A stretch of 28,319 bases of DNA from Candidatus Hydrothermarchaeota archaeon (GTDB lineage: Archaea; CAYFZR01): NCBI GenBank assembly GCA_046760505.1, contig JBHIEG010000023.1:1-28319 (forward strand), given 5' to 3'. A model generated the notes under the pieces. The model searched no databases and had not been told where the DNA came from. It saw only the letters and a list, made by a program, of their open reading frames with translations. A program made the translations under genes and the position numbers. The first letter of the stretch is position 1; each line of letters opens with the position of its first letter. Below are positions 1,007 through 28,319 of this stretch, piece after piece.

Positions 1007-2005
1007 TTATAGTTCCCTCGTTGTTACAAATTCTAAAAGTTCGGCAAGTTTTTCCTTAGCAGGAGAATCTTCTATGAAATTAAGATCTTCCATCGCAAAG
1101 TCCTTGTAACGATTTTGTAGCAGAGATATCTCTTCCTTTACACTATATTTCTCTATTAGTTCGTGAATCTTTTCTATTTCATTCCTCTCTATATCTTTTT
1201 TTCCCCAAAGACCGAGGAGAAAATCTTTTTCTTTATTATTTAGGTGTGCAAAGAGTTTTATTATTACTATATTCATGTCCTCTTCCTTTAGATCGTTGAG
1301 AACGGGTTTTCCAATCTTATCCTGAGTTCCGTAAATATCCAAGAGGTCGTCTCTAATTTGCCATGCGTAACCTATAGACTTTCCATATGCATGGAGAGCC
1401 TCTATCTCCTCTCTCCTGCCGCCGCCAACTATCGCGCCCGCCTTGGCAGCCAGTGATATGAGAGGGCAAGTTTTTAACTCCACAATCTCTAGGTATTTCT
1501 CAACAGAAAACTTTTCTAATTCTGACCGCTCTAACTCCAGAGATGCACCCAGTACAGTCTTATAAACGCTTTCAACAAAACATTCTATCAACTCATACAG
1601 CTGATTCTTGGAGAGTGTATCCTCCTTATAAAATTTTAAGAGTCCATAGGTATCATTCAATAGAATGCCAGAGGCCAGAGTGGCTATCTTTCTATTCCAT
1701 TTTTTATGTACGGTAAGATCTCCCCTTCTCTTATCTGCATCATCAAACATATCATCTATTATTAGGGAAGATGTGTGAATTAATTCATATGCAAGGGACA
1801 CTGGAATAGCCTTCCTTCTTTCTCCATTTACTGCCTCGCATGCTAATAACGTTAAAATTGGTCTGAATCTTTTCCCTGATCTCATTATTGCATATCTAAC
1901 CGCTAGGCTTAGGGGATGATTGTCCAGACTTGAGTATAGTTCCCTTAGTTTATCGTTTATAAGGGAGCGATACTCATTATACCAATCAGGAAATATTTTA
2001 TCCAT
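1007..2005 (-). CDS. Trans-polyprenyl diphosphate synthase, probably longer than C20
   Basis: GKRFRP, FARM HTSSLIIDDMFD..RRG, KT motif, SARM QIRDDLLD. Ser at position -5 from the FARM. Confidence 0.92.
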   Translation of the reverse strand: MDKIFPDWYNEYRSLINDKLRELYSSLDNHPLSLAVRYAIMRSGKRFRPILTLLACEAVNGERRKAIPVSLAYELIHTSSLIIDDMFDDADKRRGDLTVHKKWNRKIATLASGILLNDTYGLLKFYKEDTLSKNQLYELIECFVESVYKTVLGASLELERSELEKFSVEKYLEIVELKTCPLISLAAKAGAIVGGGRREEIEALHAYGKSIGYAWQIRDDLLDIYGTQDKIGKPVLNDLKEEDMNIVIIKLFAHLNNKEKDFLLGLWGKKDIERNEIEKIHELIEKYSVKEEISLLQNRYKDFAMEDLNFIEDSPAKEKLAELLEFVTTREL

Positions 2006-2062
2006 TTATTCATTCCCTTTATTCCAAAATTTTTTAATATCATATATACATTTCCATAGAAC

Positions 2063-2617
2063 ATGCCTCTCCTGTCTCATCAGAAAAGGGCGAAAACATT
2101 TTTTGATTATCTCTCAAGATTCTATGATCACATAAATCCAAGAATATACACAAAAGAAATGAAAGAACTGTTATTAAATGAAATCGAGGGAAAAAACATC
2201 TTGGATGTGGGAGTTGGAACCGGTTACACCACAAAAGAGATTCCCAACTCCATAGGGATCGATCTATCCTACGAAATGATCAAAAAAGGGAAGAAAAATT
2301 ACACGGGATCATTAATCGTGGGAGATGCTCTCAAACCTCCTTTCAAGCCAAAATCTTTTGACACGATAATTAGTGCTGGCTCTTTCTACTACTTTCCATC
2401 TCCTTTGGAGGCATTAAGAAAATTTCATGAGTTGTTGAGGGACAGGGGAGTTTTTCTCTGCATAGTTCCAAACACAAGAATACTCAGACCCTTCATCCAT
2501 ACATTCAAAGAAAAAGATCTTGAAGACCTCTACAAAAAGAGTTCTTTCAGACAGGAAAAGCTACTAAAGGTTTGCTTTGGAGGAATCGCATATTTCTCAA
2601 AGGCAAGAAAAATGTGA
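2063..2617 (+). CDS. Class I SAM methyltransferase, VTE3(MPBQ/MSBQ)/MenG-like prenylquinol methyltransferase
   Basis: Motif I LDVGVGTG; N-terminal YLSRFYDHINP..YTKEM and ISAGSFYYFPSP resemble the VTE3 family as recalled. Confidence 0.8.
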   Translation: MPLLSHQKRAKTFFDYLSRFYDHINPRIYTKEMKELLLNEIEGKNILDVGVGTGYTTKEIPNSIGIDLSYEMIKKGKKNYTGSLIVGDALKPPFKPKSFDTIISAGSFYYFPSPLEALRKFHELLRDRGVFLCIVPNTRILRPFIHTFKEKDLEDLYKKSSFRQEKLLKVCFGGIAYFSKARKM

Positions 2618-3770
2618 TGTCCTTGTAGTAGGTCTTGGTCCAGCGGGCGCCTTCGCCCTTAGAGAAGCATCTAAACATGTAGATGTAATAGGAATAGACT
2701 CCAAGGAAAGAATAGATTATCCCGTAAAGTGTGGGGAACTGCTTCCAAAAATAAATGAATTAAAGGACCTATTGCCAGAGACGGATAGAAAACTTATCGA
2801 ATACCTCTTCAAGGTGCCAAAAAGGTTTATTTCAAATGAAACAAGCAAAATCAGATTTATATCACCAAAAAACAACTCAATAGAAATAAAATTTAAAAAT
2901 ATCATATTAAATAGGAACAAATGGATAGAGGATATCGTAAAACAGGGAGAAAAAAATGGAGCAAGAATTCTGTTGAATACCATGGCAATAGGCCTTAAAG
3001 AAAATGTTTTAAAGGTTAAAAAGGAAGGAGAAATCTTTAACATCAAAGCCAAGGTGATAATCGGGGCAGACGGTGCATACTCAAAGGTGGCGAAGTGGAC
3101 CAATCTGTACACTAGAAACGATTCTTTATGCAAAGTAAAACAGCATCTCTTGGAGGGAGTTGAAAGTGAAACCGTGGACATGTACTTCGGGCGAAGAATT
3201 GCTCCGGGAACCTATGCATATATAATACCAAAGGGAAACTCCCTTGCGAATGTTGGAACCGGAGTAAGAAATTCTTTTATCGAAAAAGGAGATACTTTAT
3301 CAAAAATTTTAGATAGATTCATCAAAAATAATCCTCTGCTAAGAGATGCAAGGATAAAAAATACCATTGGGGCGATACTGCCGGTCGGACAGCCACTGCC
3401 TAAAACATGCAGTGATAGCGTGATGCTTGTAGGGGACGCTGCAAGACAGGTAATATCAATAGTTGGGGCTGGAATCCCTCCCAGCGCCATAGCAGGAAGT
3501 ATTGCTGGTGAAATTTCCGCTAGGCATATATTAGAAGATATCCCCCTCTCGTTATACGAGAAAAAGTGGAAAGCAAATCTATCCAAGGTCTTTGAGAGAT
3601 CTATTTTCCTAAGAAAATTTTGGGATAAACTCGCGATGGATGATGACCTCATAGAGAAGTTTATGGGAAGAATGAACGAACATGATGGAGAATCCATCCT
3701 TAGGGTTAAGTTATCCCCAAGAATAAAGATTACAAACAAATTATTCCCGCTTATCAAAAATCTCATCTGA
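2577..3770 (+). CDS. Geranylgeranyl reductase family FAD oxidoreductase
   Basis: VVGLGPAG, KCGE, GADG, PGTYAYIIPKG, VGDAA, GAGI. Start uncertain because it overlaps the upstream gene. Confidence 0.9.
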   Translation: MEESHISQRQEKCDVLVVGLGPAGAFALREASKHVDVIGIDSKERIDYPVKCGELLPKINELKDLLPETDRKLIEYLFKVPKRFISNETSKIRFISPKNNSIEIKFKNIILNRNKWIEDIVKQGEKNGARILLNTMAIGLKENVLKVKKEGEIFNIKAKVIIGADGAYSKVAKWTNLYTRNDSLCKVKQHLLEGVESETVDMYFGRRIAPGTYAYIIPKGNSLANVGTGVRNSFIEKGDTLSKILDRFIKNNPLLRDARIKNTIGAILPVGQPLPKTCSDSVMLVGDAARQVISIVGAGIPPSAIAGSIAGEISARHILEDIPLSLYEKKWKANLSKVFERSIFLRKFWDKLAMDDDLIEKFMGRMNEHDGESILRVKLSPRIKITNKLFPLIKNLI

Positions 3771-3829
3771 CAAAAGGGAGTAGATAATAGAGTGAAATAA
3801 TGGGATTTAAAGTAAAAGGAGTTAATAAG

Positions 3830-5527
3830 ATGAGTGATCTAATTCTATTGCACCCTCCAAGCGTGTACGACTTTAGGGATATCTGTATATTTTACGGACC
3901 AGTCAGTGATCTCATACCTTCTACCCCCATATTTGAAATGTATCCGATCGGTTTTATCAGTATTGCAGAGTATTTGGAAAGACATGGATACAGAGTTAAA
4001 ATTGTAAATATTGCGGCGAAAATGTTAAAGGACAATAAGTTTAACGTTGAAAAACTGATAAAAGGCTTAGACTCGCAGGTATTCGGCATAGATCTCCACT
4101 GGCTACCCCATGCCCAAGGTTCTTTGGAGATTGCTAGAATTATAAAGAAGTACCATCCGAATTCAAAGATAGTGATGGGGGGTTTATCTTCCTCTTACTT
4201 TCACACTGAGATCATTGACCATCAAGTTGACTATATTTTAAGGGGAGACTCTACCGAAAAGCCGTTTCTCATGCTTTTAGACTGTATAGAAAAGGAAAAA
4301 AAGCCTGAGAACGTGCCAAATCTCACATGGAAAGATGATGGGAAGAAAAAAATAAATCCAATTTCTCATGTTCCCGAAAGCCTAGACGATCTCATGTTGA
4401 ATCCAGAGCCTCTGATAAAGTCGGTAATAAGAGACAGAGATATGAATGGATACATACCTTTCAAGGATTGGATAGACTATCCCCTTACCGCAGTTTTTAC
4501 ATGCAGAGGATGTCTTTACAACTGCGTAACCTGCGGCGGCTCAAAACACTTTTACTCGAGCATATGTATGAGGGAGAAAATAGCCTTAAGGAGTCCGGAT
4601 AAGATAGCGGAGGACATGGCAATTATTCAGGATTATATCCAAGGACCAATATTTATTGTCGGAGATCTTTTTCAAGGCGGGAACAAATATGCTGAAAACG
4701 TATTGAACTCAATAAAAAAAGAGAATATAGAGAATCCAGTCGTGGTAGAATTTTTTAAACCCCCTTCAGACTCATTTTTGGAAAAGATTTCCAGAACATT
4801 TAAAGAGTTTTACTTGCAGATATCTCCCGAGAGTCACGACTATTACATAAGAAGAAATCAGGGAAGAAACTACGGGAATAAAGATCTGGAGAAAGCAATA
4901 AAAAAAGCGATAGAACTTGGATGTAGTAGAATAGATGTCTTTTTCATGATAGGCATTCCTGGTCAAACAATGGATTCTGTCTACGAAACGGTTGAATACT
5001 GTGCGCATTTAATAGAATTAGATAGTTACAGAAGCGTAAGACCATTTATTTCTCCCTTAGCGCCATTTTTGGATCCGGGAAGCCTTGCATATGAAAACCC
5101 GGCTAAATTTGGATACAAACTATTTTTAAGATCTCTTGAGGATCACAGAAGGGCTCTGCTGAATCCTAGCTGGAAGCATACACTGAATTATGAAACCAAA
5201 TGGCTCAAGAAGGAAGATATAGTTAAGAGTACATACGAAAGCGCAATCAGATTAAACAGGATTAAGATGGAAAAAAATGTTATAAATCAGGAGGAAGCCC
5301 TTGAAATTGAAGAAAGGATATTGCTCTCGAGAAATATCCTTTACGAAATAGATAACGCACTGAAGTTTGACGGTGAAAAAAGAGAGAATAAACTATCGGA
5401 GTTAAAGTCTAAATTAGAGGAAGCCAATAAAGAGGTTCTATGTCCGAGAGAAGAGTTGAAATTTTCTAAAAAAGCGAAAATAAAGAAGATCAATGTACTC
5501 AAATCATTTCTGAGAAACTTTAGATGA
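3830..5527 (+). CDS. B12-binding domain radical SAM protein (TIGR04190/Ta0216-like)
   Basis: LLHPPSVYDFR..FEMYPIGF and GIDLHWLPHAQG signatures; CxxxCxxC (CLYNCVTC). ATG 3830 preferred over 3800. Confidence 0.9.
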   Translation: MSDLILLHPPSVYDFRDICIFYGPVSDLIPSTPIFEMYPIGFISIAEYLERHGYRVKIVNIAAKMLKDNKFNVEKLIKGLDSQVFGIDLHWLPHAQGSLEIARIIKKYHPNSKIVMGGLSSSYFHTEIIDHQVDYILRGDSTEKPFLMLLDCIEKEKKPENVPNLTWKDDGKKKINPISHVPESLDDLMLNPEPLIKSVIRDRDMNGYIPFKDWIDYPLTAVFTCRGCLYNCVTCGGSKHFYSSICMREKIALRSPDKIAEDMAIIQDYIQGPIFIVGDLFQGGNKYAENVLNSIKKENIENPVVVEFFKPPSDSFLEKISRTFKEFYLQISPESHDYYIRRNQGRNYGNKDLEKAIKKAIELGCSRIDVFFMIGIPGQTMDSVYETVEYCAHLIELDSYRSVRPFISPLAPFLDPGSLAYENPAKFGYKLFLRSLEDHRRALLNPSWKHTLNYETKWLKKEDIVKSTYESAIRLNRIKMEKNVINQEEALEIEERILLSRNILYEIDNALKFDGEKRENKLSELKSKLEEANKEVLCPREELKFSKKAKIKKINVLKSFLRNFR

Positions 5528-5704
5528 ATCTGTCTTTCTAGCCTTTATGTAAACTGGGAGCAACGTTAAAAGAGTTCCTGCACTTATGAAAAACAGGGCC
5601 ATCGAGAATTCTCTTCTCGTAATAAACTCAATTCCAACCGTTACTATGAGAAGACCGAGGAGTTTAGTCATTAGGTCTATCGTGTAATAGGTTTTACCTT
5701 CCAA
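5504..5704 (-). CDS. Small 2-TM membrane protein, last gene of the cytochrome b operon
   Basis: TTG start after AGAGGA, two hydrophobic helices, 12 nt after the CCG gene. Confidence 0.65.
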   Translation of the reverse strand: MEGKTYYTIDLMTKLLGLLIVTVGIEFITRREFSMALFFISAGTLLTLLPVYIKARKTDSSKVSQK

Positions 5705-5716
5705 ATTTATTCCTCT

Positions 5717-6877
5717 TTATATGCCCATCGACTGAAGAACCAATTCTGATACGTCTCTCACCTTGATTTGTGCGTTAGCCTTTTTTACACCATCAGAGAG
5801 ATTTAATCTACAGAAAGGGCAGCAACTCGCTATCAACTCTGCACCAGTAGAAATTGCCTCATTTGCTCTTATTTCTGCAAGGGTAATTGCATCATCAGCA
5901 AATTGAGCCCTGAATCCCCCTCCTGCGCCGCAGCATCTCGCTAGTTCTTTTATATTTTCCATTTCTACTAACTCCAACTCAGGTATGGACTCCAATATCT
6001 TCCTTGGCTCCTCATATATTCCTACGTGCCTACCTAGATGACATGGATCATGATAAGTTACTCTCATTTCCATGTTCTTCTTCAAATCGATTCTGCCTTC
6101 GTTTAGGAGCTCATATATGTATTGAGAGATATGTTTGACCTCTACATCAAAATCTAGTCCTAAAGAATCAGCCCACTTGGGGTAGTCTATGTGAAGCGTA
6201 CGAAAACAACCTGCACAAGCTGCCAAAACAGTTTCTGTACCTCTATTTTTGAACTCGCTTATGTTGTGGGTGATTAAATCATATGCTATGTCAAGTTGAC
6301 CAGTTCTGAGAAACGGAGAGCCACAGCACCACTCATTTGGACCGAGAAAATCAAAATTTATTCCAGCGGCATTCAATATTTTTACGCTGCTTTTTGCAAG
6401 ATCAAGCATTCTGTAAGCCGCTGTGCATCCAGCGAAGTATAAAATTGGAGAATTCTCTTTTATGTTTATATCTTCAGGAATCCAGGCTCCTCTTTGAGAG
6501 GGTTCTTCATTGTATGGATTGTGTTTTGCTTGCGTAGCCTTTTTTATCCTAACATGATTCGGCATAGGTCCTAATTCAAGTCGAACCAGTTCAGAGCGTA
6601 TCTCTTCCCAGAGTTCTACCGTGGGTATGTTAACCTGACAAACCTCGTGGCAGTACCCGCATGTTGTGCACTGGTATATTCTTTCAGTCATGTTTTGGTC
6701 AAATCTTGCTCTGTTTTTTAAAACATTCTTCAAGAAAAATAACTTTCCTCTTGGCGTTGAAGATTCCCATTTGTTTAAATCATACATGCAGCAAACAGGT
6801 ATACAATAACCGCATTGTGCACAACTGAAAGTTTCCCATGACATTTCGTCGGTTAACTTTACTCTCCAGTCTACCAT
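5717..6877 (-). CDS. HdrD/GlcF-like Fe-S oxidoreductase (2x[4Fe-4S] + 2 CCG domains)
   Basis: CAQCGYCIPVC, CTTCGYCHEVC; FAGC..CCG..CAGC and HDPC..CCG..CPFC. Confidence 0.93.
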   Translation of the reverse strand: MVDWRVKLTDEMSWETFSCAQCGYCIPVCCMYDLNKWESSTPRGKLFFLKNVLKNRARFDQNMTERIYQCTTCGYCHEVCQVNIPTVELWEEIRSELVRLELGPMPNHVRIKKATQAKHNPYNEEPSQRGAWIPEDINIKENSPILYFAGCTAAYRMLDLAKSSVKILNAAGINFDFLGPNEWCCGSPFLRTGQLDIAYDLITHNISEFKNRGTETVLAACAGCFRTLHIDYPKWADSLGLDFDVEVKHISQYIYELLNEGRIDLKKNMEMRVTYHDPCHLGRHVGIYEEPRKILESIPELELVEMENIKELARCCGAGGGFRAQFADDAITLAEIRANEAISTGAELIASCCPFCRLNLSDGVKKANAQIKVRDVSELVLQSMGI

Positions 6878-6887
6878 AAAAAACCTC

Positions 6888-8336
6888 CTATTGGCTCTTA
6901 GGTCTTTTGTATTTAAATATTTTGCTTCCGATGCTCATAAAGGGTTTTGATAATTTAATTGCAAGAGAAACAGGCATTATTGGGAAAGTTTTTATCTTCG
7001 GCGAAAATATCTTCCCTGGATTCATGATGTCATTTGGATCCACTTCCTTTTTGAATCTCTTTATCTTTTCGTATCTTTCCTTTCCGAAGAAACTCTCGGA
7101 TTCACCTGAAAACCATATTCCAGTAGAGTATATTCTTCCGCCGAACTTCTTTGCTACATCGATAATTTTAAATGCGTTGTTCCAACCAAAAGTGAATCTC
7201 AAGAAAGAGCGTTCGTCATCAAGGAAGAATGCTAGAATAGCTGCTTCTCTCTCGCTGATTACCTGTCCCTCCGCACCTATATACATGCCCTTTGTCTCTT
7301 TTTCGATTGCCTCGAGCGCCTCACCCAGTCTCTCCAATGGGACTAAGGCCTCGCTAGGTATTATACTCGGACCGAGCCTTTTTAATCTCATTGGATAAAA
7401 TCTCTCTTCCCATTCTTCTTTCGAGATTTCACCGCTAACTATTTCTCCAGCGTTTGAATATATTATGTCCACGAGTTTTTCCTTAGAATTGTTGTAGTCA
7501 GATTCGTAATAAGCGATCAATGCATAGTACTTGTCTTCTGGTAGAACTTTATGCCCGGTAGCCTCCTGCTTCAGTTTAGTGAATCCTGGAGTGCCAAAAC
7601 CTATTGTAAATGGTTTCACTTCCCTTACAATTTGATTTATTGCTCTATTTAGGGTTGCTGCATTTTTGAACAATACGGTTACTGGAACGATTTCCTCCTT
7701 GTCCTTTACCTCAATCTTCAACTTTGTTATGAATCCGGTTATTCCCTCACAGTCGCACACAAGGTCTAGATCATTGCCCTTGAACGTCATTACCTGTCCA
7801 TTGGGAGTTACTACCTCTGCCTCTCTTACCACATCGCATGCCCCTCCATGGGCTAGACTGCCGATTCCCGTGCCTCCCTGGGCAATCCAGCCCGCTACAG
7901 TAGCAGATGGAGCGCTGGATGGATAATTCTTGAGCTGTAATCCTTTTTTGTTTAGTTCCTTCTCAAGATTCCACCAAATTACGCCTGGCTCTACCGTAGC
8001 GGTCTTTTCATCTTTATTTATCTCGATTATTTTACCCATCCTCGAAAGATCGACCACTATTCCTCCGTACACTGGTAAGGCGCCTCCGTATCCTCCAGAT
8101 GCTGATCCTCTGGGTATCAAAGGCATTCTGAATTCGTTAGCCAAATTAACAAGCTTTATGAGTTCTTCATTATTTTCTGGAAGTACCACCGCATCAGGAA
8201 ATGTTGATAGCATAAAAACTGAAACCAAATCAGGAAGCATGCCTACATCATGTGAGTAGAGGAGTCTCTCGTCCTCGTCAAATCTTACCCTATCCCCAAA
8301 TATTTCTTTCAACCTGTATTTTAACTCAACATCCAT
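6888..8336 (-). CDS. FAD-binding oxidoreductase (GlcD/D-2-hydroxyacid dehydrogenase, VAO fold)
   Basis: PDAVVLP, PRGSASG, VEPG, ATVAGW, EGITGFIT, DPNDIMNPGK. Confidence 0.92.
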   Translation of the reverse strand: MDVELKYRLKEIFGDRVRFDEDERLLYSHDVGMLPDLVSVFMLSTFPDAVVLPENNEELIKLVNLANEFRMPLIPRGSASGGYGGALPVYGGIVVDLSRMGKIIEINKDEKTATVEPGVIWWNLEKELNKKGLQLKNYPSSAPSATVAGWIAQGGTGIGSLAHGGACDVVREAEVVTPNGQVMTFKGNDLDLVCDCEGITGFITKLKIEVKDKEEIVPVTVLFKNAATLNRAINQIVREVKPFTIGFGTPGFTKLKQEATGHKVLPEDKYYALIAYYESDYNNSKEKLVDIIYSNAGEIVSGEISKEEWEERFYPMRLKRLGPSIIPSEALVPLERLGEALEAIEKETKGMYIGAEGQVISEREAAILAFFLDDERSFLRFTFGWNNAFKIIDVAKKFGGRIYSTGIWFSGESESFFGKERYEKIKRFKKEVDPNDIMNPGKIFSPKIKTFPIMPVSLAIKLSKPFMSIGSKIFKYKRPKSQ

Positions 8337-8345
8337 TCTATCACC

Positions 8346-8792
8346 TTAATGATGCACTACTGCGTATACACTAAGACCTATCATGGCTATTATTGTTAGG
8401 ACACCGATTATAGTCCAGAAAGGTCTTTCCCAAGGGTAATATGCTTCTTTTCTGTCTATAAATGGGAGCAGAAATAACAATAGAATGAATAGTGCCGGGC
8501 CTATGATTCCACCGATTAACTTAGCCGGTATAGGACCTATTGGCCAAGTCCATGTCTTGAGAAAGCCAAAAACCGGGAAGAAGTACCAATCCGGATAATT
8601 TGAGGGCGGCATCTTGAAAGGATCAAACGGTGGATGAACAGGCAACTGGAGAAATGCGGCTAGGAAACACAAGGCTGCGAATACCAAGAGCATGACTGCT
8701 GGATATCTGAAGACCTCGTCTTTAAAGAGTATCGCGTGTCTTTCTTCCTTTTTTTCCAATCTTCTTTTTACTTCATCTATCTTCATTTTCAT
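8346..8792 (-). CDS. petD: Cytochrome b6 subunit IV (PetD-like)
   Basis: PDWYFFPVF Qo motif, LLPFID..PWERP, 3 TM helices, directly after cytochrome b6. Confidence 0.88.
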   Translation of the reverse strand: MKMKIDEVKRRLEKKEERHAILFKDEVFRYPAVMLLVFAALCFLAAFLQLPVHPPFDPFKMPPSNYPDWYFFPVFGFLKTWTWPIGPIPAKLIGGIIGPALFILLLFLLPFIDRKEAYYPWERPFWTIIGVLTIIAMIGLSVYAVVHH

Positions 8793-8795
8793 TCC

Positions 8796-9473
8796 TCATA
8801 GAGGTTCTTTAATGCCTTGGTTTCTCACCAATATGAAGTGTATCACGCATAAACCCATTAGGATAGCGGGAAGTACTAGGATGTGTAGGGTATAAAATCT
8901 TGCTAGGGTTCCGCCACCAATTTCAGCTCCTCCAAGAAGTAATTTCTGAAACACAGGTCCAATTACCGGTACAGAGGCTACCAACTGGAGCCCTATGGTG
9001 CTAGCCCAGTAAGAAACCTGATCCCAAGGAAGCATGTATCCTGAGAAACCCAGACCGAGGGTACAGAACAGAAGCAGCAATCCTATCATCCAATTCAGTT
9101 CCCTTGGCTTTTGATACGCTCCTACCAGATAAACTCTAAACATATGGAGATAAACCGCAGCGATCATTAGGTGAGCAGCCCAGTGATGAAGACTTCGCAT
9201 GAAGCTTCCGAGATAAACCTCCGTTGAGATGAACTTTACGCTCTCATATGCCATTTCTGCAGAGGGCACGTAATAGAACGCAAGGAAAATTCCTGTGAAT
9301 GCATCTACTAAAAAAGCAAAGAATGCTATCCCTCCCAAGCAGTAGGCAGGATTCATTGCCTGCCTCGGTACAGGTCTATCGAGTATGCTTTTTAGTAGTT
9401 CAAATACATCTATAGCGCCTGTTCTTTCGTCGATCCACTGAAGTATCCTTTCCTCCGGTTTAATCAAAGGCAT
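8796..9473 (-). CDS. petB: Cytochrome b6 (PetB-like split cytochrome b)
   Basis: YCLGG, RSLHHW..YLHMFRVY, PRELNW, GYMLPWDQVSYWA, RFYTLH-x14-HF..QGI..PL. ATG 9473 follows a GGTGG RBS. Confidence 0.95.
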   Translation of the reverse strand: MPLIKPEERILQWIDERTGAIDVFELLKSILDRPVPRQAMNPAYCLGGIAFFAFLVDAFTGIFLAFYYVPSAEMAYESVKFISTEVYLGSFMRSLHHWAAHLMIAAVYLHMFRVYLVGAYQKPRELNWMIGLLLLFCTLGLGFSGYMLPWDQVSYWASTIGLQLVASVPVIGPVFQKLLLGGAEIGGGTLARFYTLHILVLPAILMGLCVIHFILVRNQGIKEPL

Positions 9474-9474
9474 T

Positions 9475-9735
9475 TTAACCCACCGAAATTTCTTCAATAG
9501 GCATAAATTTTCTTCTCAGCAGTGCAAAGATCATAGCTAGGAAAAGACTGCATAGTCCAATTAAGAAGCCAATAACATCAATCTTTTCTCCAAAGATGGC
9601 TTTGAGGACATTTCCTCCAAGTTTTTCAGGTCCGAATATAATCATGCCAAGAATAAGGAGAGACGTCAGAATTATCAATCCAGATAGTATGGTTAATGTA
9701 ATCACGAATGAAAGAGAGAGAACGGATCTTTCCAT
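9475..9735 (-). CDS. Small 2-TM membrane protein in the cytochrome b operon
   Basis: Two hydrophobic stretches, AGGTGA RBS, tightly packed between cytochrome c and petB. Confidence 0.75.
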   Translation of the reverse strand: MERSVLSLSFVITLTILSGLIILTSLLILGMIIFGPEKLGGNVLKAIFGEKIDVIGFLIGLCSLFLAMIFALLRRKFMPIEEISVG

Positions 9736-9744
9736 TCAATCACC

Positions 9745-10059
9745 TTACAGTTTCAGTGCGAATATTATAGAGAGCAACACGAAAAGCGTTGCAAAGGCAA
9801 TTATACCCATGTCCCATTGGTGTAGTTTGACGCCAACATTTGGTTCTTCAGGCTTTTCCTCGATTGTTTTTTCTGGTGGATGATAGCCAGCAAATGTATG
9901 ATGCTGTGCATAATACATGCCAAGATCATTCAAGGCGGGTGGGGCCACATCGTGGCAGAAAGTGCAGTCTCTGCCTGTTTCTTCCGCATATTTAGGCTTT
10001 GCTTGAGAGATGCCTAAAGATGAGATTATAAAAATGATGATAAGTAACATCCTCTTCAT
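9745..10059 (-). CDS. Membrane-anchored monoheme cytochrome c with cytochrome f/Cyc2-like N-terminus
   Basis: Signal peptide ending SQA, KPKYAEETGRDCTFCH..PALNDLG, C-terminal TM helix. Confidence 0.85.
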   Translation of the reverse strand: MKRMLLIIIFIISSLGISQAKPKYAEETGRDCTFCHDVAPPALNDLGMYYAQHHTFAGYHPPEKTIEEKPEEPNVGVKLHQWDMGIIAFATLFVLLSIIFALKL

Positions 10060-10094
10060 GATTCCACCTGTGATAAACCTTCAAAAGAGACTAC

Positions 10095-10110
10095 ATATAT
10101 ATACGTTTCG
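10095..10110 (-). promoter_or_regulatory. BRE + TATA promoter of the cytochrome operon
   Basis: Minus strand CGAAACGTATATATAT about 35 nt upstream of ATG 10059, with an AGGTGG RBS between. Confidence 0.65.
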
Positions 10111-10294
10111 ACTTTGGGTTCTGTTAATTAATTTGTGATGATGAAAAATAAATCAGAAAGTAGAAAATTCGATTGTATCCTCCCAAAAGAGAGAACCATA
10201 AATTTTCGCCTTATTATCTAAAATGAGTCAAAGATAGATAGAAGTATACACTTAGAAAAATATGGAATAAATTTAAATAATAAAGGAGAAGGAA

Positions 10295-11176
10295 TCATTC
10301 ACTAACAATAACTTTTAGGAGATCCCAAAGACCAATTAATCCTTTAAAATTATCATTTTCATCCAATACGAATAGACAATCAGTTTTCTGTTTAAATAAA
10401 ACAGTCATAGCATCTGGCAGTAATGTTTCCTGATATACAATAGGCACCACAGGCTTTAGTATTTTCTCTATCGTCTCATATTTCTCGCCAAATTTTTCAA
10501 ATGCCTCTTCAATTCTAACGATGCCTTTAATTTTTTTGTCCTCTATTACGGGTAATACATGCGCTTTGGTTTTAATGAAGGAATTGATGGCGTATTCTAT
10601 CGAATCAGTTGTGGTTAATGTTACTGCTTCCTTCTCCATTAGTTCTTCCACCTTTACAGTGGGTATGCTAGATATCCACTCGATGTCTATGAGGAGGGAG
10701 TTTTCCGTATCGTCTCTACCAATTACTGTGCCATGGATTCTCATTTTGTTGGCAGGAGTAGGTCCGATAGTTATTCTTTCGCCTATGTGGATGGTTTTTA
10801 TGTCCCCGATGAGATAAACTTCAGCCTTGCATTCTTCAGGATGGGGAACTCCGGTTAGATCTATCTCAGTTACGGTTATGTTTGGGAATGGTATGCCTTC
10901 AACAGATATAGGAACTGGCACCTCTTTTTCAATTAGACAAATATTTAAAGCATCATATGCTTTGCTGGTGGGTCTGTATCCACCTTTAGGTCCGGGAACG
11001 CCTTCTACCAAGCCTAATGCCCTCAGGGACTGCATCTGATTCCTGATTGTACCTGGATTTTTGTCCGTCAAACTGGCTATATCTTTCCCCTTTACCGATG
11101 CACTCTTCTTCCTCCGGTAAAGGTCTATTAATGCTAGCAAAATCTCTCTTTGAACAGAGGTCAGCTCAACTGACAT
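10295..11176 (-). CDS. HrcA-type winged-helix + CBS-pair transcriptional regulator (COG2524-like)
   Basis: QREILLALIDLY..KNPGTIRNQMQSLRALGLVEGVPGPKGGY, C-terminal CBS pair. Confidence 0.88.
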   Translation of the reverse strand: MSVELTSVQREILLALIDLYRRKKSASVKGKDIASLTDKNPGTIRNQMQSLRALGLVEGVPGPKGGYRPTSKAYDALNICLIEKEVPVPISVEGIPFPNITVTEIDLTGVPHPEECKAEVYLIGDIKTIHIGERITIGPTPANKMRIHGTVIGRDDTENSLLIDIEWISSIPTVKVEELMEKEAVTLTTTDSIEYAINSFIKTKAHVLPVIEDKKIKGIVRIEEAFEKFGEKYETIEKILKPVVPIVYQETLLPDAMTVLFKQKTDCLFVLDENDNFKGLIGLWDLLKVIVSE

Positions 11177-25958: not shown

Positions 25959-28070
25959 TCAAGTAAAACCTCCTCTTACACCATATGTTTCATCGTAGGA
26001 AATATCTATTATTGGAAAGCCTTCATCTGGTATTTTAACCATCCAAATTGGTATTGGAACAGTATATTCCTTTATCATTGCGAAAATTTTTCTTTTTTCC
26101 ATGTAAGTTTCTTTTTTCATTTGATCATATAGTTTTCTAACCTCTTTTTCATAGATACTTGGAATACCAAGCACTGTAAATTCATCTCTGAACTTTAAGA
26201 GTTTCTGAGCAAATTCATCTCTAACTCTCCAAGAATATAAGAAGGCAGTATTATCTTGCCAGTCGCTCAACAAATTATATATCCTCCTTTGCTTTACTTC
26301 TGAAAGAAAAATTTCTTTATCGTATTCTTCTATCAGTTGAAGTTCATTTTCAAGATTTTCGCTCTCTAAACGCTTTAGGAATTTCCAAGTTCTACGAACA
26401 TCTTCCTTTTCGTATGGATATCCTTTATTAGAATTTATCTCGTTAGGAAAGGTTATCCACGCATTTATTTTCTCTGTTTTCTCTTTATACCTATTTACTC
26501 TACCAAACCTCTGAACAAGAGATTCTAAAGGAGCACATTCAGTTACCATAAAATCAAACGATACATCGAGAGAGACCTCTATGACTTGGGTAGCAACTAA
26601 AATAAAACTCTCTCCGTTTCTTATCCAATTGGTAATTTTTTCTTCTTTTTCACTTCGATGCTTATAAATGAAACGTGAGTGTAGTAACTCTGTGTTTACG
26701 TCTGAATTCCTCAACAAGTTTTGCAGTTCCTTAAATACATTCTGGGATTTTTCTACGGTGTTACATACTATCGCTATCCTAAATGGGTTTTTTTGAGAAC
26801 TAAAAATATCAAGAACGCTCTCAACAATCTCTTGTAAATCTTCCTCAACAATCTTGTACATTACTCTTCTTCTCTTTCTGAATTCATCGTTTAACCATAA
26901 TTTTTCTACTTTTCCTCCAAATATCCCAGTGAAATGTTCTAGAAGTTTGGAAGGAAAAGTTGCTGACATTACACAAAACTTTAAGTTGTAAAGTTCAGCA
27001 AAACGTTCAAGGAAATAAGAAAGAATGTACAGCATATTCGGTGAAAAAGTATGGACTTCATCAAGAATAATTACCGAATTTCTTAAATGGGGGCGTTTTA
27101 TAAAGTATTTTCCCACTTGAAGGAATGTCAACAATAGCTGGTCAAGTGTGGTAATGATAACAGGCTGAACGAAATAGGAAGAGAACATTAATTCCCTGAA
27201 ATCGCTGTCCTCTCTTTTTACGGCCTCTACATCAGCATAATAAAAAAGTTCACCCACATTTTCTTTCCCAAAAAAGCGACACAGATCATCATAAAAACTC
27301 TTTATTGAAGTGATTGTGGGCAGAACATAGATTATCCTTGAGCCATTTCCTATCGCATATGAGAGAGAGGCTGCCGTCTTTCCCCAACCAGTGGGGGCTC
27401 TGATGAGCAAATTCGTATCTATTTTACTTAGATTTAACTGTGTTTTTAGAGTATCACTTCTTATTTTTAGTCTTTTTTTCTTGATTTTCTCATTAAGCCA
27501 TGCTTCTAGGTCTTTAACATTTTTATTCGGTTTCTTTATCGTGTAATTTGTTAAGTTGTTAGCTGATAGAATATCCGCAAATTTGAAAAGTCCATAAACA
27601 TCAACAAAGTTGATCTTCGACATTAGATCGAGTTTAGAGACTAATCTGTAAAGATTTCTTCTCCAATTTATCATTTCGCTTTCAATCCATTTTTTCTCGC
27701 TTACAATAGCCTCATTTTTAACCCTATATACATCCTCATCCTCTATGCTTGTTAAACTACTGTGATGTTTAAGTATAAACAAAGGAAGAAGAGGATACTT
27801 CCCCAATTCCTCCCTACCCATGATAAAAAGAATGAGAGTTGAAAGGGGAGAGTGAAATGGATTTTTTTCGTTATGGACGCTCCAGTCATTTCTAAGTTTT
27901 CCTAAATCATGGTAATAGCAAAGGAGTTCAGCAAATTCTTGATAGTTCTTCAAATCATAAAAATTTAGAAATTCAAAATTTAATCCTTTGCATTCCTCAA
28001 TATGTTTACCTAACTTTTTACCTTCATGCGATTCTTTACTCCAAATTCTCTCTTCTAAATCGCTCAACAT
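25959..28070 (-). CDS. cas3: Type I CRISPR nuclease-helicase Cas3 (HD fused)
   Basis: H..HDLGK..H..HH..AD nuclease; APTGWGKT, DEVH, SAT, HSRF, ATQVIEVSLD, QRFGRVNR. Confidence 0.96.
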   Translation of the reverse strand: MLSDLEERIWSKESHEGKKLGKHIEECKGLNFEFLNFYDLKNYQEFAELLCYYHDLGKLRNDWSVHNEKNPFHSPLSTLILFIMGREELGKYPLLPLFILKHHSSLTSIEDEDVYRVKNEAIVSEKKWIESEMINWRRNLYRLVSKLDLMSKINFVDVYGLFKFADILSANNLTNYTIKKPNKNVKDLEAWLNEKIKKKRLKIRSDTLKTQLNLSKIDTNLLIRAPTGWGKTAASLSYAIGNGSRIIYVLPTITSIKSFYDDLCRFFGKENVGELFYYADVEAVKREDSDFRELMFSSYFVQPVIITTLDQLLLTFLQVGKYFIKRPHLRNSVIILDEVHTFSPNMLYILSYFLERFAELYNLKFCVMSATFPSKLLEHFTGIFGGKVEKLWLNDEFRKRRRVMYKIVEEDLQEIVESVLDIFSSQKNPFRIAIVCNTVEKSQNVFKELQNLLRNSDVNTELLHSRFIYKHRSEKEEKITNWIRNGESFILVATQVIEVSLDVSFDFMVTECAPLESLVQRFGRVNRYKEKTEKINAWITFPNEINSNKGYPYEKEDVRRTWKFLKRLESENLENELQLIEEYDKEIFLSEVKQRRIYNLLSDWQDNTAFLYSWRVRDEFAQKLLKFRDEFTVLGIPSIYEKEVRKLYDQMKKETYMEKRKIFAMIKEYTVPIPIWMVKIPDEGFPIIDISYDETYGVRGGFT

Positions 28071-28319
28071 CACTTACATCCCATATAGCTATACCATTTA
28101 CTGTTTTTATTGGTTTTTTAACCTTAAATTCTACATTAAAACCTTGATAAAAGAAAGTGTTCAAATATAACACTGTTATTAACTTTGTTCTAAAGCGCCT
28201 CTTGATCAAATTTTCTGTGATTTTCAGGATATCTTTCTCTCCTCTTCCGGTAACGCAACCCTCCATTCTCTGGACTTGCTTTCAAGAAGAGAAATCACCT
28301 TGGAAATTTCTCGTTCTCT
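28036..28319 (-). pseudogene. 3' end of the upstream cas gene (possibly cas5), apparently frameshifted and cut by the window edge
   Basis: Overlaps the cas3 start. No single frame stays open from the window edge to the stop at 28036. Identity inferred from position only. Confidence 0.4.

Follow-up and report, generated by a model that had tools for sequence, protein, structure and literature searches.

In the genome of a Candidatus Hydrothermarchaeota archaeon we found a seven-gene operon in which a cytochrome b6/subunit IV core is encoded together with a GlcD-like flavin adenine dinucleotide (FAD) protein and an HdrD-like iron-sulphur (FeS) protein, with no Rieske gene among them; two Rieske genes that group with those of related operons lie elsewhere in the same genome. 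We propose, with a probability of roughly 0.6, that the operon encodes a quinol:cytochrome c oxidoreductase that receives its Rieske protein in trans, from one or both of these paralogs, and that is joined to a dedicated FAD/FeS dehydrogenase. The seven open reading frames (ORFs) run head to tail on the minus strand, from position 10059 to position 5504 of contig JBHIEG010000023.1 (assembly GCA_046760505.1), whose 28,319 nucleotides (nt) are the window of this study.

The genome studied is called G000 here, with the window as its contig C23, and that of a sister species G001; these two are the only species genomes that the collection holds for the class and likewise for the phylum. The G000 assembly consists of 142 contigs and is estimated to be 100% complete with 5.67% contamination, and genome-wide negative results are given as 'not found' and not as 'absent'. 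For comparison we used 80 loci related to the b6 of the operon, fetched from species genomes, seven of which are of a type known from Candidatus Methanoperedens; fetched genomic loci carry L numbers. Four sequencing runs, all from a single study and labelled hydrothermal vent metagenome, contain the DNA of the window, and one of them is possibly its source.

The operon and its cytochrome b core

The first gene (9745..10059) encodes a monoheme c-type cytochrome of 104 amino acids (aa) with one CxxCH motif (CTFCH), a signal-like N-terminus and a C-terminal transmembrane (TM) anchor, and the second (9475..9735) an 86-aa protein with two TM segments. They are followed by a PetB-like cytochrome b6 (PF00033, E 1.2e-52) and a PetD-like subunit IV (8346..8792; PF00032, E 6.5e-10) with three TM segments and the motif PDWY of the quinol-oxidising (Qo) site. 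Next come a GlcD-like flavoprotein of the VAO/PCMH fold (6888..8336; FAD_binding_4, E 7e-40, and FAD-oxidase_C), an HdrD/TfrB-like FeS protein with a 4Fe-4S dicluster and two CCG domains (5717..6877; E 6.6e-37), hereafter the CCG protein, and a 66-aa protein with two TM segments (5504..5704). ORFs 1, 2 and 7 have no Pfam or NCBIfam match. Read from an upstream TTG, the b6 gene spans 8796..9497 and overlaps the preceding 86-aa gene; translation probably starts at the ATG at 9458, as in the ortholog, which leaves intergenic gaps of 9, 16, 3, 9, 10 and 12 nt. The first-pass annotation, which had been made from the letters of the window, is thus borne out in its seven-gene minus-strand operon, for which all ORFs are present with identities given by Pfam, NCBIfam and TM segments. 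Its statement that the gaps measure 12 nt or less holds for those of 9, 3, 9, 10 and 12 nt, but not for the 16 nt before b6. In G001 the same seven genes stand in identical order (L012 5976..10518), with identities of 72–90% that include the small proteins (73% for the cytochrome c and 72% for the 86-aa protein).

The b6 protein scores 252 bits with the cytochrome b6 model NF002990, under the cut-off of 325. Its four heme-ligand histidines (H104, H118, H205 and H220) are invariant in all 19 aligned sequences, at spacings of 14 and 15 positions that we take to be typical of b6, and the same 19 sequences share C53 (within NPAYCLGG), presumably the cysteine that binds heme c_i. Likewise, P67, W69, Y70 and F71 of subunit IV are invariant in 28 of 28 sequences, as P-[DE]-W-Y-F. 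The nearest b6 relatives outside the genus are 50–59% identical, many of them being a Candidatus Methanoperedens 'cytochrome b subunit of the bc complex', and in a FastTree phylogeny the b6 proteins of the genus fall within an archaeal clade of 14 (support 0.985), which matches the Rieske clade described below. All seven Methanoperedens-type loci have the order cytochrome c, 91-aa protein with two TM segments, Rieske, b6, subunit IV and a protein of about 60 aa with two TM segments; in one of them (L016) two multiheme cytochromes also stand upstream. The passages of Arshad et al. (PMC4683180) on this locus describe it in Methanoperedens as an eight-gene 'non-canonical Rieske/cytb' cluster, MPEBLZ_00816-00823, and those of Leu et al. 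(PMC7327174) as the 'group 1' menaquinone:cytochrome c oxidoreductase of Methanoperedenaceae.

Sequence, gene order and tree all place the b6 core within this non-canonical Rieske/cytochrome b family. Compared gene by gene, the operon corresponds to a Methanoperedens-type cluster from which the Rieske gene has moved away and into which the FAD and CCG genes have been inserted, after subunit IV and ahead of the last small gene. The b6, subunit IV and last small proteins are 50–53%, 36–39% and 27–33% identical to those of the Methanoperedens cluster, and the shared genes (cytochrome c, the protein of about 90 aa with two TM segments, b6, subunit IV and the one of about 60 aa) keep their order. 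The 104-aa cytochrome c, 37–41% identical to its positional equivalent in six Methanoperedens-type loci, is judged by this likeness to be the counterpart of the cytochrome c gene at the MPEBLZ_00818 position. For the 66-aa protein, tblastn finds matches of 27–39% identity (E 2e-7 to 8e-6) in five loci, each directly after subunit IV, which identifies it as a homolog of the small gene at the MPEBLZ_00823 position. That the 86-aa peptide is homologous to the 91-aa protein of Methanoperedens was rejected (hhalign probability 1.5%), and the comparison leaves the peptide as a positional and topological analogue only of the protein that precedes Rieske in those operons. The membrane peptide that had been noted in the usual petC position does directly precede b6, but it is not a Rieske replacement, because the closest relatives hold their 91-aa protein there and then the Rieske gene.

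Unlike the Methanoperedens cluster, the operon described here has FAD and CCG genes and no Rieske gene (two being encoded elsewhere), no multiheme cytochrome genes directly upstream, a Qo motif PDWY in place of PEWY, and a first protein with two TM segments that lacks detectable homology. Its host belongs to another phylum, and McrA was not found in G000.

Two Rieske genes encoded in trans

Neither a PF00355 scan of the contig nor a six-frame regular-expression search for both cluster boxes found a Rieske protein in the window, in agreement with the first-pass annotation, which had seen no Rieske motif pair there. The G001 operon likewise contains no Rieske gene. In the whole of G000, two of three scored candidates pass the PF00355 cut-off of 20.3 bits, with 48.6 and 42.5 bits; they lie on contigs C19 and C101 (G000:C19:27333-27815 and G000:C101:1083-1565) and encode 161 aa each. 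Both carry the twin-arginine motif TRRYFL, a hydrophobic (TM) stretch and the boxes CTHL[AG]C and CPCH. The arginine pair together with C88, H90, C93, C108, C110 and H111 is invariant in 17 of 17 aligned sequences. Around the second box the two proteins read CPCH-I-G-K-F, without the Ser and the Tyr by which the redox potential is raised, and their potential is accordingly predicted to be low and of the menaquinol type. Orthologs in G001 are 84–85% identical and paralogs 71–76%, so that the duplication predates the split of the two species and both copies have been kept.

The Rieske proteins encoded in trans share 44–50% identity with those encoded in the operons of the seven Methanoperedens-type loci. 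Both groups share a C-terminal tail, WKDPxYVKSL, which does not occur in the aligned Chloroflexota and Bacillales sequences. In a FastTree phylogeny the four trans proteins of G000 and G001 form a clade (0.995) that is sister to the seven Methanoperedens-type operon proteins (0.936). A Rieske match lies within 2 kilobases (kb) of b6 in 78 of the 80 related loci, which makes the Rieske–b6 partnership the rule; the two others are L017, in which a contig end is 71 nt from b6, and L044. PF00033 has a single match in G000, the b6 of the operon, and no other cytochrome b that could partner the two Rieske proteins is found in that genome. A normal Rieske/b6 partnership with a relocated Rieske gene would be the simplest reading of these comparisons.

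Such a separation has a parallel: in cyanobacteria and plastids the petB-petD genes lie apart from petC, and a single b6 core can work with several PetC paralogs. As in that b6f layout, a Rieske gene apart from petBD would be compatible with a normal complex, although the lineage is unrelated, the context photosynthetic and FAD/CCG genes are missing there. Thus, the operon is Rieske-less at the locus, as the first-pass annotation had it, but the complex is probably not, given two Rieske genes of the twin-arginine translocation (Tat) type, an intact Qo motif and one cytochrome b. The same annotation had named, as an observation that would speak against a Rieske-less complex, a Tat-exported Rieske gene elsewhere whose product docks at the Qo site; what we found, at the level of sequence, are two Tat-type Rieske genes, conserved in G001 and grouping with the Methanoperedens-type operon proteins, which answers to that observation in part.

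One of the two Rieske paralogs is preceded, 27–28 nt upstream, by a gene for a multi-TM protein of 107–109 aa (L014 9977-10819 on G000:C19; L096 1411-2248 on G001:C6). No family matches this protein, and a search of the 80 related loci and L012 at E 0.01 found no homolog of it; within G000 it has one weak extra match, on contig C35 (E 0.002). The other exception among the 80 loci, L044 (8651-10065), is a high-GC archaeal locus that encodes a 113-aa TM protein, b6 and a subunit IV-like protein with the motif PPWY; for 9 kb to either side it has neither a Rieske nor a cytochrome c gene, which makes it possibly a truly Rieske-free locus.

The FAD and CCG proteins

The CCG protein contains two PF02754 stretches together with Fer4_8 and Fer4_17 matches, and 17 of its cysteines, including the eight of two ferredoxin-type motifs, are invariant in 27 sequences. 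For the FAD protein we collected the 150 best cluster representatives out of 1.84 billion proteins and classed them by phmmer and hydropathy: 58 are FAD::CCG fusions, 85 are FAD proteins alone, six are FAD proteins with at least three predicted TM segments, and one is an NrfD::FAD fusion. In one Methanoperedens-type locus (L019) a 1023-aa FAD::CCG fusion is encoded 2.5 kb from the bc operon on the opposite strand. The frequency of such fusions indicates that the FAD and CCG proteins form a unit, and both genes are 88% identical between G000 and G001.

Solved relatives match the FAD protein in its FAD-binding half only (E 5e-25 to 1.6e-16) and include a 'FAD/FMN-containing dehydrogenase', alkyl-dihydroxyacetone phosphate synthase, D-lactate dehydrogenase, LctD and glycolate oxidase. 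The nearest solved relatives of the CCG protein are an 'iron-sulfur-binding reductase' (9ojn, E 9e-36) and HdrB. All NCBIfam equivalog cut-offs are missed (glcD 125 versus 567.9, YdiJ 94.2 versus 1350, GlcF 66.3 versus 333 and LdhH 180.1 versus 800). The CCG protein also stays under the cut-offs of TmcB (94 versus 735), HmcF (76 versus 750) and DsrK (62 versus 400), and of TfrB, a thiol-oxidising enzyme that is its best NCBIfam match. Since McrA was not found, CoM-S-S-CoB (a heterodisulfide) is an unlikely substrate. The glycolate oxidase GlcDEF, the D-2-hydroxyglutarate dehydrogenase YdiJ and lactate dehydrogenases of the LdhH type likewise pair or fuse a FAD_binding_4/FAD-oxidase_C flavoprotein with a 4Fe-4S and CCG protein; the operon proteins differ from them in scoring so far under the cut-offs and in matching Protein Data Bank structures over the FAD-binding half alone, and we know of no such enzyme described inside a cytochrome b6 operon.

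A structure prediction of b6, subunit IV and the CCG protein with two hemes gave a score of 0.02 (mark 0.32), which speaks neither for nor against binding. A CCG paralog, 75% identical, is encoded on contig C16 of G000 (L112 935-7785) between a CooS-like gene, a DsrE-like gene and a 792-aa gene of the CO-dehydrogenase family.

Fusions of related proteins with quinone modules

The closest FAD paralog in G000 is covalently joined to a different quinone module. An operon on contig C10 (G000:C10:44145-48991; L111 1145-5991) encodes a 6-heme cytochrome, a 4-heme cytochrome, a Tat-type 4Fe-4S protein and an 867-aa NrfD::FAD fusion, in which NrfD (residues 15-336, E 1e-40) is followed by a further TM helix and by a FAD domain 77% identical to that of the operon; a CCG gene converges on the fusion gene. 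The fusion is kept in G001 (contig C52) as an 873-aa open frame of 87% identity. It holds the only NrfD in G000.

A second fusion joins subunit IV itself to an HdrD-like domain. Contig C7 of G001 carries a tight nine-gene minus-strand operon (L013 1605-11752) that starts with a 5-heme cytochrome, a 77-aa TM protein, a Rieske protein, a cytochrome b and a 543-aa fusion of subunit IV to a 4Fe-4S and two CCG domains, and continues with HdrC-like, HdrB-like, 1010-aa HdrA-like and MvhD genes; after a gap of 192 nt another 5-heme cytochrome follows. LPDWYF is retained in the fusion, and a fourth TM helix is present that, on the topology of subunit IV, places the HdrD-like domain in the cytoplasm. 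An operon of this type was not found in G000. A search for longer forms with the subunit IV of the operon returned seven matches, all of them subunit IV::cytochrome c fusions and none with a CCG domain. With residues 1-195 of the G001 fusion there were ten matches: one is a Thermoplasmata protein with 4Fe-4S domains, and two combine PF00032 with PF02754, namely the G001 fusion itself and one 85% identical to it (public contig P0129). These searches depend on shared words, and they thus bear weakly on how rare such fusions are.

Is the linkage of cytochrome b6 to FAD and CCG genes a general feature? Among the 80 related loci a FAD gene lies near b6 in one, and a CCG match within 4 kb of b6 in 34. 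Chloroflexota loci (L025-L087, e.g. L026 9001-12441) show a recurrent order of b6, in some cases subunit IV, Rieske and a CCG protein of 620–740 aa with 4Fe-4S and two CCG domains. In three of the five such proteins examined an N-terminal NarI-like domain is present, which gives them an anchor of their own. The first-pass annotation had tied the b6 module to the FAD/CCG proteins and to cytochromes, and had regarded petBD genes that are generally unlinked from FAD/CCG genes as an argument against that tie. The tie is independently supported by the identical gene order in both genomes and by the NrfD::FAD and subunit IV::HdrD fusions; the linkage is not general, the FAD gene being near b6 in that single locus and the CCG genes more often, but with a membrane domain of their own where examined.

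PF02665, the NarI-like family, has one match in G000, on contig C7, where it adjoins another CCG gene. Thus, all three quinone-interacting membrane modules that were found in G000 (b6/subunit IV, NrfD and NarI-like) are tied, by gene order or fusion, to HdrD- or GlcD-like proteins. A NuoH-type subunit of complex I was not found in G000, so that another quinone reductase is needed. The genome contains one molybdopterin enzyme and fifteen ORFs with at least two CxxCH motifs.

Proposed mechanism and alternatives

In the mechanism that we propose, the FAD protein would oxidise a cytoplasmic substrate, probably a 2-hydroxyacid-like compound, and the electrons would travel over two [4Fe-4S] clusters and the CCG clusters until they reach membrane quinone on the cytoplasmic side, whether this is quinone of the pool or quinone at or near the quinone-reducing (Qi)/heme c_i side of b6. 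Quinol would be oxidised at the Qo site (PDWY) by the Rieske protein, and electrons would leave through the anchored monoheme cytochrome c towards multiheme cytochromes. The NrfD::FAD fusion bears on the entry step. NrfD is not known to carry a redox cofactor, hemes included, so that a FAD domain fused to it would reach the external FeS protein and the cytochromes only through quinone. By analogy, the FAD/CCG pair of the operon would most likely reduce quinone at the cytoplasmic face, near or at the Qi side of b6.

A more intimate arrangement is conceivable, and we consider it doubtful: the FAD/HdrD-like pair would sit at the cytoplasmic face of the b6/subunit IV dimer and pass electrons straight to and from heme b_H/c_i. 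If true, one machine would link a two-electron substrate in the cytoplasm with the Q cycle and with cytochromes outside the cell. It could work as a substrate:cytochrome c oxidoreductase with entry from the cytoplasmic (n) side, or as a Qo-bifurcating maker of a low-potential cytoplasmic reductant of the kind proposed for anammox bacteria. The G001 operon, with its subunit IV::HdrD fusion and its HdrC-, HdrB-, HdrA- and MvhD-like genes, would then couple quinone-based to flavin-based electron bifurcation within one operon.

Several points weigh against a trans-Rieske oxidoreductase joined to its own dehydrogenase. We infer the assembly of Rieske with b6 from phylogenetic congruence and from the single cytochrome b, and neither Rieske gene adjoins any b6 gene, one of them being paired instead with the conserved 109-aa membrane protein. 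The FAD and CCG proteins, whose contact with b6 or subunit IV we also infer, have no TM segment, and their insertion is limited to this genus, where it is seen in two of two genomes that are close kin. The substrate of the FAD protein is a guess, because solved relatives cover the FAD half only and the scores lie far under the equivalog cut-offs. The fusions belong to paralogous systems and not to the operon, and they are rare (two subunit IV–CCG fusions, and one NrfD::FAD among the 150 best representatives). As for quinone biosynthesis, MqnA and MqnD have no family match in G000.

The absence of a Rieske gene from the operon in both genomes, set against the 78 of 80 related loci that keep one within 2 kb, could be taken literally: b6 and subunit IV would then serve as a di-heme anchor and quinone site for the HdrD-like/FAD enzyme, in the role that a NarI-type cytochrome b has in HdrDE, DsrMK and Tmc, with the monoheme cytochrome c linking to external cytochromes and with the Rieske proteins serving something else. 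The HdrD-like domain fused to subunit IV in G001, the scores of the CCG protein with the TmcB, HmcF and DsrK models (all under their cut-offs) and the archaeal locus L044 point in this direction. We nevertheless hold a complex without Rieske to be quite unlikely, since the two conserved Tat-type Rieske proteins share their evolutionary origin with b6 and have no other cytochrome b in G000, and the Qo motif is invariant. Moreover, the G001 operon with the subunit IV::HdrD fusion keeps its own Rieske gene, so that attachment of an HdrD-like domain does not replace Rieske, and G000 already has a classical pair of NarI-like and HdrD-like proteins on its contig C7.

With Rieske present, the direction of the electrons could still differ from that in our proposal. 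As has been put forward for the b6-type complexes of Kuenenia with their cytoplasmic FeS/FAD oxidoreductase, in the passages of PMC12954380 that treat their working, the low-potential electron from the Qo site would pass over b_L, b_H and heme c_i to the HdrD-like FeS/CCG and FAD proteins and would reduce a cytoplasmic acceptor (a disulfide or a 2-oxoacid), driven by the other electron on its way to the cytochromes c; the reverse would also be possible. The conserved cysteine at the heme c_i position is consistent with such bifurcation, as are the cytoplasmic HdrD-like domain that is fused to subunit IV in G001 ahead of HdrC, HdrB, HdrA and MvhD-like genes, and a thiol-oxidising enzyme (TfrB) as the best, sub-threshold match of the CCG protein. 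It presupposes a contact of the CCG and FAD proteins with b6, the heme-less NrfD of the NrfD::FAD paralog could not work in this way and argues for a quinone intermediate, and without McrA found the disulfide CoM-S-S-CoB is hardly a candidate; we rate bifurcation as unlikely. A mere passenger, i.e. an ordinary soluble or membrane-peripheral 2-hydroxyacid dehydrogenase that landed in the operon and has no tie to b6, is in our view very unlikely. FAD and CCG pairs and fusions are indeed common by themselves (58 fusions and 85 stand-alone proteins among the 150 best representatives), a third such pair on contig C7 of G000 has no respiratory neighbours that we could see, and a FAD gene is near b6 in only one of 80 related loci. 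Against a passenger stand the insertion between subunit IV and a conserved small gene with gaps of 9–12 nt, its retention at 88% identity in both species and the covalent fusion of the closest FAD paralog to NrfD, a subunit of another quinone module.

Relation to known systems

HdrDE, DsrMK, TmcABCD and HmcABCDEF combine a cytoplasmic HdrD-like protein with a NarI-like (PF02665) di-heme cytochrome b, to which Tmc and Hmc add external c-type cytochromes. What the operon has in common with them is the gene linkage between an HdrD-like protein (two [4Fe-4S] and two CCG domains) and a membrane cytochrome b with two hemes. Its membrane partner is, however, a b6/subunit IV pair with a Qo motif (PF00033/PF00032) and not a NarI-like protein. 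The encoded system would function in a similar way to HdrDE, DsrMK or Tmc but does not belong with them, because its membrane cytochrome is of a different family.

The closest precedent is found in the flavoprotein-bearing Rieske/cytochrome b complexes of anammox bacteria. In the passages of PMC12954380 on the clusters Kuste4569-4574 and Kustd1480-1485, a b6-type cytochrome b is accompanied by a Rieske gene in the cluster and by a putative NAD(P) oxidoreductase flavoprotein. To the extent that those passages describe them, these complexes resemble the operon in their b6-type cytochrome b with subunit IV, their outer c-type cytochromes and their gene-linked, predicted cytoplasmic FeS/FAD oxidoreductase; the flavoprotein here is a different one, of the GlcD/VAO type with an HdrD-like CCG protein, so the likeness is one of principle and was drawn by description. 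On our side the gene linkage of FAD/CCG with b6 is present, and the only domain seen to be placed in the cytoplasm is the HdrD-like one in the fusion paralog of G001.

In the open full-text literature, taken without supplements and subscription journals, we found no b6 or Rieske/cytochrome b operon with GlcD-like and HdrD-like genes, no description of an NrfD::FAD or a subunit IV::HdrD fusion, and no account of the Chloroflexota order of b6, Rieske and CCG genes. The entry or exit of electrons at b6-type complexes from the n-side via heme c_i is a long-standing open question, and the two natural fusions, which fix the topology, offer concrete constructs for testing coupling on that side. The operon extends the anammox precedent to archaea and adds a respiratory design in a phylum represented by two species genomes; it also carries a warning, as a petBD-like locus without a Rieske gene does not show a complex without Rieske. 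That Rieske/cytochrome b and NrfD modules are repeatedly coupled to HdrD- and GlcD-type enzymes in this lineage makes experimental follow-up worthwhile.

Upstream region and neighbouring genes

The intergenic region ahead of the operon (10060..10294, minus strand) contains a TATA-like run, TATATATAT, at 10103..10095, preceded by CGAAAC in a purine-rich stretch, and GGTGG at 10068..10064, 5 nt ahead of the first ATG. A scan for bacterial-type promoters and terminators, which is unsuited to archaea, found no excess over shuffled sequences (13 sites versus 12.4 and 5 versus 3.6, respectively). Directly upstream, at 10295-11176 on the minus strand, lies a gene for an HrcA-type winged-helix protein with two CBS domains, which is also found in G001 and is a candidate regulator.

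On the other side, a group of genes at 1007-5527 converges on the 3' end of the operon, with synteny kept in G001. It comprises a polyprenyl synthetase (minus strand), a small S-adenosylmethionine (SAM) methyltransferase that weakly matches UbiE, a flavoprotein resembling geranylgeranyl reductase and a B12-binding radical SAM protein (plus strand), which possibly act in quinone or lipid tailoring. At 81-989 on the plus strand an ORF with 13 CxxCH motifs has cytochrome c3/c7-like and MtrC-like matches; the contig start is near, and its N-terminus is possibly cut. At the far end of the window, 25959-28073 on the minus strand encodes a Cas3-like helicase with a Cas3 C-terminal domain, DEAD and Helicase_C.

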